From Candidatus Hermodarchaeota archaeon (GTDB taxonomy: Archaea > Asgardarchaeota > Lokiarchaeia > Sigyniarchaeales > SOKP01): a DNA stretch of 64,000 nt. Below, one piece after another: positions 9,340 through 56,271 of the stretch. The stretch covers positions 6,403 to 70,402 of the forward strand of contig JBHLLO010000008.1 of assembly GCA_048885535.1 (NCBI GenBank), written 5' to 3'. A program made the translations under genes and the position numbers. Every line of letters begins with the position of its first letter. The first letter of the stretch is position 1. A model generated the notes under the pieces. It was given only the letters and a program-made list of their open reading frames with translations, did no database searches and was not told the origin of the DNA.

Positions 9340-9903
9340 ATGGCTAATAAGAAGAGAAATAACAAGATAATTCATTCTTTTAAATGCCCTTCATGTCAAG
9401 AGGGAATAATTGACATTGATAGCAATATTTATGATCTCCCAGATGGAGATAAGATGCTTATATTAAAATTTGAATGTAATACTTGCACATTTCATAAAAA
9501 TGATATAATTCCGCTAACAACAAACACGGAACCAGGTATTATGATTTTGCGAGTTAAAAATGAAGAAGACCTCAAATCTAAAGTTTATCGCTCTCCAACT
9601 GGTAAGTTAGAAATCCCAGAATTAGAATTGGTAGTGGAGCCTGGTCCAAGAGCAGATTTCTACTATACAAATGTAGAGGGTATCCTCTTGAGATTTGAGA
9701 ATGCTGTTTCAATGTATAAAAATAATCTTAATAAGGATGACCCCGAATTTAAGGAAATTACCCTGATATTAAAAGATCTAAAAAATGCACTTGATGGTAA
9801 ATTAAATTTCACTTTGAAAATTACTGACAATGGAGGAGGTAGTTATATTATCCCAATTAATAAATCACATTATAGTTTTGAGAAATTAAAGATATCAAAT
9901 TAA
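9340..9903 (+). CDS. ZPR1-type zinc-finger protein
   Basis: N-terminal CPSC...CNTC zinc ribbon followed by a beta-rich ZPR1-like domain. The size is typical of archaeal ZPR1 homologues. Confidence 0.55.
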   Translation: MANKKRNNKIIHSFKCPSCQEGIIDIDSNIYDLPDGDKMLILKFECNTCTFHKNDIIPLTTNTEPGIMILRVKNEEDLKSKVYRSPTGKLEIPELELVVEPGPRADFYYTNVEGILLRFENAVSMYKNNLNKDDPEFKEITLILKDLKNALDGKLNFTLKITDNGGGSYIIPINKSHYSFEKLKISN

Positions 9904-51711: not shown

Positions 51712-52191
51712 ATGAGTCAGGCATCGTGGAAGTATCTAATAAATGGTAGTTATGTAATGATGGCTTCAATATTCCTACCAATTACTTATCACTCCCTGCG
51801 CGATGTTTATCATGAATTTCATGCTTTTTTTTGGATATTTGGATTGATTATCCATGTAGATGGTGCGATAGATATGGTTTGGTTTTTTAAAATCTCTGGT
51901 GGATATTGGCTTTTACCGATAACTACAATACTAATTATTATCCTTGGTTCGATTATGATTATAGTTTTAGCAATAATGGTTAAGAAAGGGAAAAAAGTTA
52001 AAAGATGGATATTTACATTAATAGTTACTCTTGAAGCTTCAATTATATTGATAAATTTTGGGTTTTATGAGTTTCTTAGAAATGCATTTTTTGGATATTT
52101 GTCATTTTTATTTGGGTTAATCTTATTAGTTATTGGCAACAAGAAGTATTATAAAGAATCCCGTAATTCAAGAAATATTTTGGAATCATGA
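51712..52191 (+). CDS. paralogous small membrane protein 1 (about 5 TM)
   Basis: The N-terminal SQASWKYLINGSYVMMASIFLPI and C-terminal FFGYLSFLFGLILLVIGN are shared with the third copy. Confidence 0.6.
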   Translation: MSQASWKYLINGSYVMMASIFLPITYHSLRDVYHEFHAFFWIFGLIIHVDGAIDMVWFFKISGGYWLLPITTILIIILGSIMIIVLAIMVKKGKKVKRWIFTLIVTLEASIILINFGFYEFLRNAFFGYLSFLFGLILLVIGNKKYYKESRNSRNILES

Positions 52192-52643
52192 CTCAAGAAC
52201 CTTGGAAAAATCTGATAAACTTTAGTTATGTAATGTTGGTGTCCCTATTAATTCCATCTCATTTTACTATTCTTGAAGCCACCTTTGGATATGGGCATTC
52301 AACTGTTGGTGTACTTCTTTGGATACACGGTTTGTCCTACTCAGGTTATGGGATAGGTTGGATTTGGCAAACAACTTATTCTCGTTATATAGGGGTTCAA
52401 CTTATATTTTCTCTGTATCTAATAATTATAATCTCAGTCAGCACACACATTCTTGCTCGAATAATCAAGAAAAAGGAGAAACTTAGAAAGAAAACGAGTT
52501 ATGCGATAGTTTATTCAATTATTTTCCTTCAGAGTATACTACTGTTCCTTAACTTAATTATGCTTCCCTTCTTCCCATTTTTTGGATATCTCTTATGGAC
52601 ATTTGCTCTTTTGTTATTAATTAAGACAGTAAAAACTTTGTAG
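52188..52643 (+). CDS. paralogous small membrane protein 2
   Basis: TQEPWKNLINFSYVMLVSLLIP... The start ATGA overlaps the stop of copy 1. This is the most divergent copy. Confidence 0.6.
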   Translation: MTQEPWKNLINFSYVMLVSLLIPSHFTILEATFGYGHSTVGVLLWIHGLSYSGYGIGWIWQTTYSRYIGVQLIFSLYLIIIISVSTHILARIIKKKEKLRKKTSYAIVYSIIFLQSILLFLNLIMLPFFPFFGYLLWTFALLLLIKTVKTL

Positions 52644-52652
52644 ATTATTTGC

Positions 52653-52723
52653 ATAATTTCAAAATAAATTTAAGTTAAAAAATGATTTATCATCTTAAGA
52701 AATCCTAAAAAAAGTGAGTGAAT
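52653..52723 (+). repeat. conserved upstream region, copy 2
   Basis: See 51641-51711. Confidence 0.6.
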
Positions 52724-53194
52724 ATGACTCAAGAGTCATGGAAATATCTAATAAATGGTAGTTATGTGATGTTGGCTTCTTTATTTTTACCGATTGGTTA
52801 TAGTTCGTTATGTTGTCCTACAACTCATATTTTCATATGGGTATTTTTCTGGATCTGGGTAGATAATACAATAAGGGTTCGTTGGTTTTTTGAAATACAA
52901 ATCATCCCAAATTATTGGTACTCTTGGTTTTATTGGATTTTGCCATTAATTTCGATTCTAGTTATTCTAGTTGGTTCGATTTCTATCATAATTTCAGCAA
53001 GAATGATAAGAAAAGGGAAAAAAGCCAGTAAAGGGATATTTACATTAATAATTTTTCTTCAATTCGCAATTTTATTGATAAACTTAATTGCCTATTTTGG
53101 TCAGGTATTTTTTGGATATTTATCATTTTTATTTGCGCTAATCTTACTAATTAAAGGTAATAGAATGTTTCTTACAGAAACTAAAGCATTATAA
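52724..53194 (+). CDS. paralogous small membrane protein 3
   Basis: MTQESWKYLINGSYVMLASLFLPI... ATG 52724 matches the paralog N-termini better than GTG 52718. Confidence 0.6.
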   Translation: MTQESWKYLINGSYVMLASLFLPIGYSSLCCPTTHIFIWVFFWIWVDNTIRVRWFFEIQIIPNYWYSWFYWILPLISILVILVGSISIIISARMIRKGKKASKGIFTLIIFLQFAILLINLIAYFGQVFFGYLSFLFALILLIKGNRMFLTETKAL

Positions 53195-53195
53195 T

Positions 53196-55538
53196 CTAAC
53201 CTATATCTTCATTACTATATTTGTAGCGACTTATTTTAAGAATTTCTTCGGCAATTTTTTTTCCAATATTCTTAACTCTCATGAGGTCTCCATAATCCGC
53301 ATTAAAAATGTTTTGGAGTGATTTTAGTTCTTTTAATAAGTTTTTTGCACGAAGTGAGTTCACACCAGGTATTCCAGCAACAATAAATTCCAATAAACGG
53401 GATATCTCAATGGGTTTTTTATCAAATCTTAATTTTGGTTCTCCCTTTGACTCGGAAAATTCTTTTTTGGCCAATTGAAATAGAAATTTAGCTGTTTCTA
53501 AGGCATCTTTAGTCTTATAAATCAATACTCCTAGATTTAATATGATCGAAGTAATTGCACCATAAAGAGCATTTTCATTTATTGCAGAGTCTCCAAAAGG
53601 GTCGCCTTCTAAAATTAATATTGGCTTATCAAAATTATTTTTTAAATCAAATAGTTCATTAAACAATCTTCCATCTTTTAGAGAGTCATTAAAGTCTTGG
53701 CTAGATTTCCTCTCAATGCCTACTCTATCTGAAATTACATAATCAGCCACTTTTAGCTGTTCTAACTTAAGCTTAACTCCCATAAGTGAGAGATTTCTAA
53801 CAACTGAGGAAGATGTTTCTCTATTATCACAAATTATAAAAAAAGTTTCATCTGATGGGATACTTTCTGGTTGCAGATTCTCATTATCTTCGGTTTCAAC
53901 TGATTGAGTCTTATTTTTATCTATGAAATTCAAGAGGCTAGGTTGATCCTTCTTAAGAGATGTTTCTGATTCTTTCATCTTTTTAAGACTTTGCCTCATA
54001 TTCTTCTCTTTTGACTTTTCTGCCCAATAATACCCCTCATCTCTAGTATTTTCTGCCATTAATATATAAACCTTACCCTCTTTTGCTCTTCCGGTTCGCC
54101 CTCTTCTTTGAATGGACCTTATTGCACTTGGTACAACATCATAAAAAATCACTAAATCACACTCAGCAATATCAAGCCCTTCTTCTGCCACGCTTGTCCC
54201 TACTAATGTATTAAAAATTCCATCTTTAAAATCTTCTAAAATACTAATTTGTTCCTTTTGAGATAACCCATTGTCGTATGATCTTTTCTGTTGTCCAACA
54301 AATTTATGAGCTTTAATAATTGAATGGTTATCTAAAAATTTCACAATATTGTTAACAGAATCCCTAAAATGACAAAAAACTAAAATTCTGGAATTTTTAT
54401 TTTCCACTAACTGATTTTGTAATATCTCGACCAATCTTTCTAACTTTGGATGAATAATCCCTTTGGATATCACCGAATTTACTAAATTATTCATTCTTTT
54501 AAATTCATAATCCTCATGGAGTTCTTTTAATGACTTGTTTGCTGTATTTCTCTTAATCTTATCTTCAATCTTATCCAGATAATCCTTTAATGCGTTAATC
54601 CCTTGAGTTTCAATCAGTTCCTGCATATGAGAAAGCCTAATGGCATTTGAAACATACTTTTTAGCAGCAAATAATTGAATCCTTTCATTATCATCTCGAG
54701 AGTTTGAAATCTTTTTGTTAATAATGGTATTTAATGTCAATAAATCCTTTCTAGTGATTTTATTAATATCTGCTGTATTTACAAGTCCTATATGTTTTAA
54801 CCATTTGTAAATACTTCTCAATTTTTCTACTAAGATTTTAGTGATTTCCAGAAATTCATTAGGGAGAGCAATTTTGATCCACTCATTGTCAACATTGTGG
54901 ATATAGGGTTTTACATCAGAATCTGTGTCAGTTCGAATTTCGATATGATTTATGTATAAATTATTCTTAATTTCATTAATTTTTCCTTCTGTGGATCCTG
55001 GGCTAGCTGTAAGACCTAAAATTTGAGCATTCTTAGCAAGCTCAATGTACTTCTGAGCAATGAAACAATACGCATAATCTCCTACAGCTCTATGGCATTC
55101 ATCAAAAATTATTAAGGAGACATCATCGATAGGGTAAAGATTGGAAATTATGTCATTTTGTAGGACTTGCGGGGTCATGAACGCAACTTTAGCTTCACGC
55201 CAGATACTCAAGCGCTTATCAGGACTAACACTACCCGTCAAAGAGACAAGATTAGTTTCTGGAATATTAGTTAGATTTAAGAAAGATTTAAAATGTTGGT
55301 TTACTAATGGTTTAGTTGGAGCTAGAAAAATTACCTTACTATCTGGTAAAGTTGTTAACCTCTGCGCTGCTAACATTAGCCCTAATATTGTTTTACCTAA
55401 TCCTGTAGGAATAACTACTAAACAGTTTTTATTTAGACAATTAATAAAAATATTTTCTTGATAAGCTCTTCTAATTACGGTATTTTCTTTGATTAAAGGG
55501 TGAGAAATAAAATCTTGTTTAGCAGATACAGAAATCAC
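53196..55538 (-). CDS. hef: Hef/FANCM-like helicase-nuclease (SF2 helicase + ERCC4 nuclease + HhH2)
   Basis: Helicase motifs PTGLGKT, DECH and QRRGRTGR. ERCC4 motif VGIERKSSQDF. Tandem helix-hairpin-helix at the C-terminus. Confidence 0.85.
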   Translation of the reverse strand: MISVSAKQDFISHPLIKENTVIRRAYQENIFINCLNKNCLVVIPTGLGKTILGLMLAAQRLTTLPDSKVIFLAPTKPLVNQHFKSFLNLTNIPETNLVSLTGSVSPDKRLSIWREAKVAFMTPQVLQNDIISNLYPIDDVSLIIFDECHRAVGDYAYCFIAQKYIELAKNAQILGLTASPGSTEGKINEIKNNLYINHIEIRTDTDSDVKPYIHNVDNEWIKIALPNEFLEITKILVEKLRSIYKWLKHIGLVNTADINKITRKDLLTLNTIINKKISNSRDDNERIQLFAAKKYVSNAIRLSHMQELIETQGINALKDYLDKIEDKIKRNTANKSLKELHEDYEFKRMNNLVNSVISKGIIHPKLERLVEILQNQLVENKNSRILVFCHFRDSVNNIVKFLDNHSIIKAHKFVGQQKRSYDNGLSQKEQISILEDFKDGIFNTLVGTSVAEEGLDIAECDLVIFYDVVPSAIRSIQRRGRTGRAKEGKVYILMAENTRDEGYYWAEKSKEKNMRQSLKKMKESETSLKKDQPSLLNFIDKNKTQSVETEDNENLQPESIPSDETFFIICDNRETSSSVVRNLSLMGVKLKLEQLKVADYVISDRVGIERKSSQDFNDSLKDGRLFNELFDLKNNFDKPILILEGDPFGDSAINENALYGAITSIILNLGVLIYKTKDALETAKFLFQLAKKEFSESKGEPKLRFDKKPIEISRLLEFIVAGIPGVNSLRAKNLLKELKSLQNIFNADYGDLMRVKNIGKKIAEEILKISRYKYSNEDIG

Positions 55539-55718
55539 CGAACTTTATGAATTTTATAATTATTCAAATAAATCTTTAATCTTTGTGTTATAAAGTTATA
55601 GAGTCAATAGAATCTCTTAAATTATATTGATGCCTTTTTAATAATAAGTTAATAGATGAATTTGAAATACTTGAAGTTTTAATTTAGTACGCGCAAGTGG
55701 TCTAGGCGTTATGACGAC

Positions 55719-55750
55719 ATTTCTCGCATGATACTTATGAAAAACGTTAT
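55719..55750 (+). other. tRNA intron 1 (32 nt, between positions 28/29)
   Basis: BHB: central helix GACG (55713-16) paired with CGUU (55745-48). Bulges AC|A and AU|A. Inner helix UUU/AAA extends with one mismatch. Confidence 0.6.
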
Positions 55751-55766
55751 ACGCTCACACCGTGTA

Positions 55767-55798
55767 AATCAACATTAAAAGAGAGTGTTGATCTCGAC
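55767..55798 (+). other. tRNA intron 2 (32 nt, between positions 44/45)
   Basis: BHB: central helix CGUG (55761-64) paired with CUCG (55793-96), 3 of 4 pairs. Bulges UA|A and AC|G. Perfect 7-bp inner helix AUCAACA/UGUUGAU. Confidence 0.7.
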
Positions 55799-55812
55799 GG
55801 TCGGGGGTTCAA

Positions 55813-55842
55813 TAATCTTAAAAATTATTTCAGATTGAAAAA
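55813..55842 (+). other. tRNA intron 3 (30 nt, in T loop between positions 58/59)
   Basis: BHB: central helix GUUC (55807-10) paired with GAAA (55837-40), 3 of 4 pairs. Bulges AA|U and AA|U. Inner helix AAUCU/AGAUU and outer helix GGGG/UCCC. Confidence 0.7.
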
Positions 55843-55968
55843 TTCCCTCCTTGCGCACTCTTTTCTAGTAATATTCACCGTTTAATTACTTTATTTAGTG
55901 TATAAACCAAAAAAGTTTTATTTTATTATATATTTTAAATTTTAAACACTTTTTTTATGGTATAAACC

Positions 55969-56271
55969 ATGTCTTCTTTTTTAGAATCTCGAGAATTAAG
56001 AAAAAAATACAAAGAAGTCAGAAACTACGTTAAGGTTGGGCCAATATTTCTAACTAGATATGAAAAAGCTAGAATAGTGGGAGCACGTGCCTTGCAAATA
56101 AGTTTTGGAGCTCCTATTTTGGTTGAAAAACCAAAAAACTTGATTGATCCAATTAAAATAGCACTTCTAGAATTAAAATCTCAGATTTTACCTTTAACAA
56201 TCCGAAGGGAATTTCCCTCAGGTGAACATCAGGACATTCCAATTAGCAAATTAATTTTAAAAAAAGATTAA
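55969..56271 (+). CDS. rpoK: DNA-directed RNA polymerase subunit K (Rpo6/RPB6 homologue)
   Basis: [18 protein letters not shown] motif. Confidence 0.85.

Follow-up and report, generated by a model that had tools for sequence, protein, structure and literature searches.

A locus of 167 nt on the plus strand, lying within a 430-bp gap between two protein genes of an A+T-rich Asgard archaeon, begins and ends with the two halves of a tRNA acceptor stem. The question that it raises is whether it can be read as one tRNA gene, interrupted by three introns outside the canonical site. The locus belongs to a window of 64,000 nucleotides, by which we mean the whole stretch of DNA that was analysed. Inspection of the sequence located the acceptor halves and the discriminator base where the original prediction had put them (GCGCAAG at 55691-97, CTTGCGC at 55850-56 and A at 55857), and excision of the three proposed introns (Table 1) from the locus gave the predicted 73-nt molecule exactly, by string identity. 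ARAGORN identified this 73-mer as tRNA-Val(cac), with stems of 7 bp (acceptor), 5 bp (anticodon) and 5 bp (T), the anticodon loop CUCACAC and the T loop UUCAAUU; the energy of the cloverleaf is -24.2 kcal/mol. Valine identity elements of tRNA are the A73 discriminator together with A35 and C36 of the anticodon, and these are present in the spliced product as A73 at 55857 and the anticodon CAC at 55756-55758.

Table 1. Position of the tRNA-Val(CAC) gene, its exons and introns, and its neighbours in the window.
Feature	Position	Strand	Remarks
Hef-type helicase/nuclease gene	53196-55538	-	780 aa; one flank of the tRNA gene
tRNA-Val(CAC) gene	55691-55857	+	167 nt
Exon 1	55691-55718	+	tRNA positions 1-28
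Intron 1	55719-55750	+	32 nt; between 28/29 (29/30 gives the same product); predicted relaxed BHB; 28% G+C
Exon 2	55751-55766	+	tRNA positions 29-44
Intron 2	55767-55798	+	32 nt; between 44/45, the sole placement compatible with the sequence
Exon 3	55799-55812	+	tRNA positions 45-58
Intron 3	55813-55842	+	30 nt; T-loop site 58/59 (product unchanged for 56/57 to 59/60); 13% G+C
Exon 4	55843-55857	+	tRNA positions 59-73; CCA not encoded
Run of four T	55861-55864	+	four bases past the discriminator; candidate transcription stop
RNA polymerase Rpo6/RpoK gene	55969-56271	+	100 aa; other flank of the tRNA gene

The four exons divide the tRNA as follows. Exon 1 contains the 5' strand of the acceptor stem, U8, G9, the D arm GUCU-AGGCGUUA-UGAC, G26, A27 and C28, and exon 2 the remainder of the anticodon stem, the anticodon loop and A44. 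Exon 3 supplies the remaining variable loop GGUC, the 5' strand of the T stem (GGGGG) and the T-loop bases UUCAA, and exon 4 the T-loop bases UU, the 3' strand of the T stem (CCCUC), the 3' strand of the acceptor stem (CUUGCGC) and A73. The exons are 56-64% G+C, the introns 13-34% and the whole window 30%.

An accompanying expectation, that standard tRNA finders may overlook this gene, was borne out. ARAGORN reported no tRNA anywhere in the unspliced 64-kb window, and it was equally blank on the tested intron-bearing relatives among those described below. Rfam returned no family at gathering score on the unspliced window and, in permissive searches, nothing tRNA-like at E<=10 on 55600-55950 or at E<=5 on the whole window. 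The tRNA family RF00005 did not match the unspliced gene even at E<=10, as expected because of the three inserts. Weak Rfam matches to FTX_2, U6, dfrA-dnaX and others were rejected as chance similarity in A+T-rich sequence.

The arrangement is well outside what shuffled sequence produces. An ad hoc scan, in which a T-arm half had to be followed 2 or 15-69 nt downstream by its T-stem complement and accompanied by a 7-bp acceptor stem and U8, gave a single match on both strands of the window, namely the tRNA-Val(CAC) locus, and no match in 60 dinucleotide shuffles; it also revealed no further hidden split tRNAs in the window. The minimum free energy (MFE) fold of the 167-nt precursor, at -49.2 kcal/mol, has a z score of -4.0, with none of 200 shuffles equally stable, and consists of a closed acceptor stem and three long arms that hold one insert each.

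To these observations, related genomes add a natural series of the same gene with and without each insert. Four syntenic loci (L001-L004) were reached through homologues of the neighbouring Hef gene. A scan of one genome per species, with a pattern composed of the anticodon exon and AATC that required GTGTAAATC, yielded 49 species, all of them Asgard, and a metagenome scan for the version of the gene that lacks intron 1 yielded 19 contigs. Altogether, the gene was recovered from about 60 genomes and metagenome contigs of related Asgard archaea (Promethearchaeota). Asgard metagenome-assembled genomes (MAGs) under Promethearchaeota, labelled Loki, Hod, Hermod, Thor or Odin, are likewise the source of the nearest Hef homologues and of every DNA match. 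Across the parsed orthologues, inserts occur at three sites only: 28/29 (28-33 nt), 44/45 (31-32 nt) and 58/59 (30 nt).

Of the eight conceivable combinations of presence and absence, seven were found: no insert in three contigs (L060-L062), insert 1 only in 30 species, insert 2 only in L002, L021, L046, L048 and several metagenome contigs, insert 3 only in L055/L063, L059 and L065, inserts 1 and 2 in L006 and L039, inserts 2 and 3 in 12 species, and all three in the window, L008 and L043. The eighth combination, 1 and 3, could not have been found because one pattern required GTGTAAATC and the other the absence of intron 1. Both scans also demanded the exact 16-mer of the anticodon arm, which biases the combination frequencies as well as the apparent invariance of exon 2, whose 16-mer is identical in all orthologues collected.

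Each insert is missing cleanly where it is missing. Intron 1 is found in about 35 species at 28-33 nt and with conserved ends; elsewhere it is absent and exon 1, which differs at no more than three positions among the orthologues, joins exon 2 directly. In the absence of intron 2 the orthologue junction reads GUGUAGGUC. Intron 3 occupies one and the same site in at least 15 species, with a constant length of 30 nt, and is absent from L003, L002 and L060, in which exon 3 adjoins exon 4. Two of the syntenic loci illustrate the point: L003/L004, with a Hef protein 87% identical to that of the window, carry inserts 1 and 2 with exons 3 and 4 contiguous, and L002, with a Hef 91% identical, carries insert 2 only, with exons 1-2 and 3-4 contiguous. 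At all three sites, joining the exons as predicted yields the sequence that orthologues without the given insert have uninterrupted. The comparison proposed with the original prediction turned up tRNA-Val genes with none, one, two or all three of the inserts, at the predicted junctions. The insert-free orthologues are called Val-cac by ARAGORN and score 65.7-67.2 bits against RF00005 (threshold 29), and the spliced product of the window is colinear with them and identical at 65 of 73 positions. All orthologues of the genome scan and of the first loci form 12 of 12 acceptor and T-stem pairs once the inserts are excised.

The exons are near-invariant across these relatives and the interiors of the introns have diverged, a pattern consistent with selection on the exons. 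One strain, L001 (a contig of GCA_048886785.1), is 99.73% identical to the window, with 14 SNPs over 5264 nt, two of which fall within the gene; both (55798 C>A and 55813 T>A) change bulge bases adjacent to a junction. A search for copies of the introns elsewhere in the window and in 72 loci, as a test of mobility, returned only short A+T-rich chance matches outside the orthologous gene. Comparison of the orthologues demonstrates the exon-intron structure and its conservation, and upholds the proposed gene identity, anticodon, four exons and three insertion sites; judged at the level of sequence, it is decisive for a three-intron gene.

How might such introns be removed? The archaeal splicing endonuclease EndA recognises the bulge-helix-bulge (BHB), a 4-bp helix between two 3-nt bulges, and its (αβ)2 forms also accept the relaxed hBH/HBh' variants (PMC4090602). 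Explicit BHB models were tested on ungapped alignments of 30 distinct sequences for intron 1, 13 for intron 2 and 14 for intron 3. In the model for intron 1, G23-G26 (GACG) pairs with the intron sequence CGUU, including one G·U pair, and the bulges are A27 C28|A and A U|A29 (the vertical line marking the cut). Pairing of G23-G26 with CGUY, the central helix, holds in 96.7% of the alignment cells. The inner helix is loose, with 72% of cells paired and a register that is not constant, and usually one additional unpaired base separates it from the central helix; RNAalifold, applied to the same alignment, found only a 4-bp invariant stem and no hairpin within the intron. An outer helix for intron 1 exists only as a lineage-specific GGCG/CGCU pairing and is mostly absent across species.

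The pairing at introns 2 and 3 is more extensive. For intron 2, C39-G42 (CGUG) pairs with CUCG, with bulges U43 A44|A and A C|G45, and the 7-bp inner helix AUCAACA/UGUUGAU shows compensatory changes at four of its seven pairs. Overall, 89.3% of cells are paired (90.4% in the central helix), compared with 10-53% when the partners are slid; the position opposite U41 forms U-A in eight sequences and a U:U mismatch in five, the window among them, and the outer helix is weak, with two invariant pairs. The MFE fold pairs U41 and G40 with the last two bases of intron 2, a pairing that was rejected because these bases vary freely (AC, UA, AU, UC, AA), as expected of bulge bases. For intron 3, G53-C56 (GUUC) pairs with GAAA, with bulges A57 A58|U and A A|U59, and the inner helix AAUCU/AGAUU, extended by AAA/UUU, shows compensatory changes at six of nine pairs. 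Here 92.4% of cells are paired (94.6% in the central helix), against 33-60% with slid partners. The partner of G53 is C or U in 11 of the 14 sequences and A in three, including the window, and the outer helix GGGG/UCCC consists of four invariant pairs, one base off the register of the mature T stem.

These alignments demonstrate the conserved pairings, and the helices named in the original prediction are indeed conserved across species, but not all of the window's own copies are perfect: intron 1 has a central helix of four pairs including the G·U, and the central helices of introns 2 and 3 have three of four, interrupted by U:U and G:A, respectively. The explicit triple-BHB fold has an energy of -25.1 kcal/mol, compared with -49.2 for the MFE fold, which places all three 3' splice sites inside helices. 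We take this gap as a probable limit of nearest-neighbour folding in the absence of protein; it still argues against a clean BHB in the window, whose motifs, as modelled, are best described as relaxed. With respect to the canonical 37/38 BHB intron, the predicted structures share the 4-bp exon-intron helix, the two 3-nt flanks and a predicted cut after the second base, and they differ in position, in the mismatch or wobble of the central helix and in an outer helix that is weak in intron 2, shifted in intron 3 and mostly absent in intron 1.

The precise cuts are fixed to different degrees. Of the positions first proposed, 44/45 is unique, but 28/29 for intron 1 and 58/59 for intron 3 are ambiguous from the sequence because the flanking bases repeat. 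The same gene and the same mature tRNA could accordingly be produced by neighbouring cuts, at 29/30 for intron 1 and at 56/57 to 59/60 for intron 3, with a different fold being recognised. The repeated bases make the product identical, in place of offset bulges the MFE fold has symmetric internal loops of 3x3 or 4x4, and intron 3 of the window retains only three pairs in its central helix. Yet the 58/59 register restores a full 4-bp central helix in relatives, where G53 meets C or U (11/14), the 28/29 register gives the GACG/CGUY helix with 97% of cells paired, and a slide of the partners by a single column makes the pairing collapse; for all three introns, slides of one to three columns lowered pairing from 79-92% to 10-60%. 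The conservation of the BHB register in relatives favours cuts at 28/29 and 58/59, and we regard the neighbouring cuts as improbable.

A more radical alternative is that the inserts are removed by another nuclease, or tolerated in a tRNA that keeps an insert, and that EndA and BHB motifs play no part. In its favour, the MFE fold exceeds the BHB fold in stability by 24 kcal/mol, and most species have no proper outer helix at intron 1. Against this, it is established that no other protein-dependent removal of tRNA introns is known in archaea (reviewed in PMC4090602), and the use of relaxed hBH/HBh' sites by (αβ)2 enzymes is documented (PMC5829648, PMC4090602). The sole feature conserved in all three inserts, moreover, is a 4-bp exon-intron helix with 3-nt stretches alongside, which, as read from the alignments, is the one feature that EndA would need. 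Removal or tolerance by a route independent of EndA is, in our estimation, exceedingly unlikely.

We consider it very probable that the locus is a functional tRNA-Val(CAC) gene with three introns, spliced by EndA, in an AT-rich Asgard archaeon. That the gene is expressed, that EndA is the enzyme and that the cleavage chemistry is that of BHB splicing we infer from the structures described above. In the proposed pathway, a promoter in the upstream A+T-rich sequence would drive transcription of the 167-nt precursor, with transcription perhaps ending at the T run listed in Table 1. The acceptor stem of the precursor would close and three arms would form, each holding one intron as a hairpin and having at its foot a BHB or relaxed BHB-like motif, created by four exon bases pairing with four intron bases just ahead of the 3' end of the intron. 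An EndA of the (αβ)2 type with an L1 loop would make six cuts, each following the second nucleotide of a 3-nt bulge; ligation of the four exons would fall to an RtcB-type ligase, and, because CCA is not encoded, CCA addition would be needed to complete a tRNA from the 73-nt product. Asgard archaea possess (αβ)2 EndA with an L1 loop conferring broad specificity, and the incomplete tRNA sets of Asgard genomes point to undetected disrupted tRNA genes (Kaneta et al. 2018, PMC5829648).

The D loop of the window is the one part of the mature tRNA that departs from expectation. The loop reads AGGCGUUA, compared with AGCGGUUA and AGUGGUUA in relatives, with G18 replaced by C and C16 by G, and with G19 kept. 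The T loop carries U54 U55 C56, and its usual D-loop counterpart G18 G19 is incomplete, G18 being replaced by C. The variant is common to the window, L001 and L003/L004/L039, and has so far been seen only there, a metagenome scan for the D arm GTGGTCTAGGCGTTATGACGAC having returned no matches; its occurrence in L001 and in the separate species L003 indicates that it is not a sequencing error. The L005 lineage (AGCCGUA), which has no intron 1, shows an independent G18>C change. In addition, U13 and U22 are mismatched in all orthologues, among them the insert-free genes with their scores of 67 bits. The reservation initially attached to the D loop is in this way resolved in part: G18 is missing and U13:U22 is mismatched, as had been noticed, but both features also occur in relatives, and G19 is kept.

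The missing G18 and the U13:U22 mismatch, together with the imperfection of every central helix, could be taken as signs of a decaying or inactive tRNA gene, the A+T-rich inserts and odd D loop representing damage and another gene supplying tRNA-Val(CAC). The D loop, however, is preserved in a second species, whose Hef is 87% identical to that of the window, despite the divergence of the introns, and all acceptor, anticodon and T-stem pairs are intact. Dozens of species have their inserts at the same three sites, with substitutions that preserve structure, U13:U22 occurs in all orthologues down to the insert-free genes at 67 bits, and the recurrence of G18>C in the L005 lineage indicates that this tRNA seems to tolerate it. 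Decay is for these reasons very unlikely, and a functional gene is the reading that we retain.

Within the lineage of the window, G15-U19 (GGCGU) is complementary to A29-U33 (ACGCU), an exon-exon pairing of 4-5 bp that is present in the MFE fold. This raises the thought that the D-loop change in the window, L001 and L003, from AGCGGUUA to AGGCGUUA, was driven by splicing, with G15-U19/A29-U33 acting as the outer helix that is missing from the intron 1 BHB in all other species. If true, the demands of an intron would have altered one of the tertiary-contact bases of the mature tRNA, the near-universal G18. We view the proposal as doubtful; the G18>C change of L005 argues for simple tolerance of the loss of G18.

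Three-intron tRNAs of Thermoproteales are reportedly treated by Sugahara et al. in papers of 2007/2008. They are classical in this group, an example being tRNA-Pro(UGG) of Pyrobaculum islandicum, with introns at 25/26, 37/38 and 56/57 (PMC4090602). The window's gene resembles them in its three short introns, in the relaxed BHB/HBh' character of the predicted motifs and in a host expected to carry a heterotetrameric (αβ)2 EndA; in contrast to them, it has no canonical 37/38 intron and resides in an AT-rich, mesophile-like Asgard archaeon as opposed to a hyperthermophilic crenarchaeon. It qualifies as a multi-intron tRNA gene, defined by at least two introns of which at least one is non-canonical, through its sites at 28/29, 44/45 and 58/59, each independently present or absent among relatives.

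Closer counterparts are found within the same superphylum. In Atabeyarchaeia and Freyarchaeia, 92-95% of tRNA genes are intron-bearing, and the introns frequently lie outside the canonical position (Valentin-Alvarado et al. 2024, PMC11291895). More than half of these genes are multi-intron, the supplementary table listing up to four introns per gene and including Val-CAC genes with one or two, and some of the introns are overlooked by tRNAscan-SE (PMC11291895). The gene in the window shares with them several short introns, often at non-canonical sites; it differs in belonging to another Asgard lineage, AT-rich and represented by MAGs labelled Promethearchaeota, Loki, Hod and Hermod. The surprise that the original prediction implied, of a multi-intron tRNA in an Asgard archaeon, does not survive, since both the broad-specificity (αβ)2 EndA (PMC5829648) and multi-intron tRNA genes (PMC11291895) had already been reported from Asgard archaea. 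The limited literature searched held no paper describing this gene, its three sites or the series from zero to three introns, and Wu et al. 2022 (PMC8813620) contains no statements on tRNA introns. What is added here is the specific gene, the three sites and the 0-to-3-intron series in about 60 relatives, the gene layout itself being known.

The practical consequence concerns annotation. ARAGORN misses tRNA-Val(CAC) in every tested relative with even one insert, and Rfam misses the window's copy; because these tools fail on the intron-bearing gene, the tRNA complements of these Asgard MAGs will look incomplete in the absence of a search that is aware of multiple introns. The biological point is modest: the intron-rich picture of Asgard tRNAs is extended to another lineage, and knowledge of the splicing mechanism is unchanged. 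The seven-of-eight series at fixed sites, for its part, is usable for the study of gain, loss and constraint of BHB introns in Asgard archaea. As a minor observation on the surroundings of the gene, the sequence TTCTTTT, which resembles the T run at 55861-55864, was seen downstream of the gene in several relatives.

Comparison of the window with the contig of a near-identical strain (L001, from GCA_048886785.1; 99.73% identity) revealed 14 single-nucleotide differences over 5264 nt, two of which lie inside the 167-nt triple-intron tRNA-Val(CAC) gene. Each adjoins a splice junction within an intron: window position 55798 (L001 1791) is where intron 2 ends, and 55813 (L001 1806) is where intron 3 begins. 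From the predicted folding of the exon-intron boundaries, both are positions at which unpaired bulge bases are expected.

Among related loci, G18 has been lost from the D loop (AGCCGUA) in a second lineage of this tRNA, one that lacks intron 1. Its D arm, GTTT-AGCCGTA-TAAC, is common to L005, L032, L041, L051, L057, L066 and L071. Loss of the tertiary contact made by G18 seems to have been tolerated repeatedly in this tRNA-Val(CAC) family. A more distant tRNA-Val(CAC) was observed in another locus (L072, ~9410-9540), with acceptor strand GCGCUGA and variable loop AGAUC. Its T loop holds an insert of about 30 nt with approximate boundaries (AATAATTGCTCCTTGCGAGCCATTGCGGGA), which is G+C-richer and does not match the GUUC/GAAY pairing pattern seen in the central helix of intron 3.

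In L002, a close relative whose Hef protein is 91% identical, the tRNA-Val(CAC) gene is oriented opposite to both flanking genes and is separated from Hef by an additional open reading frame (ORF). The acceptor stem of the L002 tRNA (GUGCAAG) differs, its D loop (AGCUCGGUA) is normal, and intron 2 is the only intron present. Taken together, the inversion, the intervening ORF, the different acceptor, the normal D loop and the single intron suggest rearrangement or gene replacement at the L002 locus.

Although the L002 tRNA is inverted and displaced, a conserved 39-nt element remains beside Hef (L002 2391-2429). In the window this element lies upstream of Hef, 72 nt from its start, and 23 related loci contain it with 0-6 mismatches, at Hef protein identities of only ~70-90%. 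It may be a promoter or leader of Hef, or a shared divergent promoter; it is more strongly conserved than would be expected of a promoter.

Features of the window and of the L002 locus
Feature	Location	Remarks
39-nt element, GAATCTCTTAAATTATATTGATGCCTTTTTAATAATAAG	window 55610-55648	conserved across related loci
ORF, ~150 aa	window 52188-52643	paralogue of the adjacent ORF 52718-53194
ORF, ~150 aa	window 52718-53194	paralogue of the adjacent ORF 52188-52643
tRNA-Val(CAC) of L002	L002 963-1068	inverted relative to both neighbours
396-aa ORF	L002 1151-2341	between tRNA-Val(CAC) and Hef; no Pfam hit on record

Across the whole window (1-64000; 64 kb), no tRNA, rRNA or other Rfam family scored at threshold, and the triple-intron tRNA-Val(CAC) is the sole structured-RNA gene found there. 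The two ~150-aa ORFs of the window are clear paralogues with a common N-terminus, M(N)TQE(P/S)WK.LIN.SYVML, and their sequences look like those of multi-pass membrane proteins.

Two contigs (L024 and L036) of a single metagenome-assembled genome, Yap2000.bin6.138, each carry a near-identical tRNA-Val(CAC) with introns 2 and 3 and the same flanks, reflecting either strain heterogeneity or bin redundancy, or else a true duplication.
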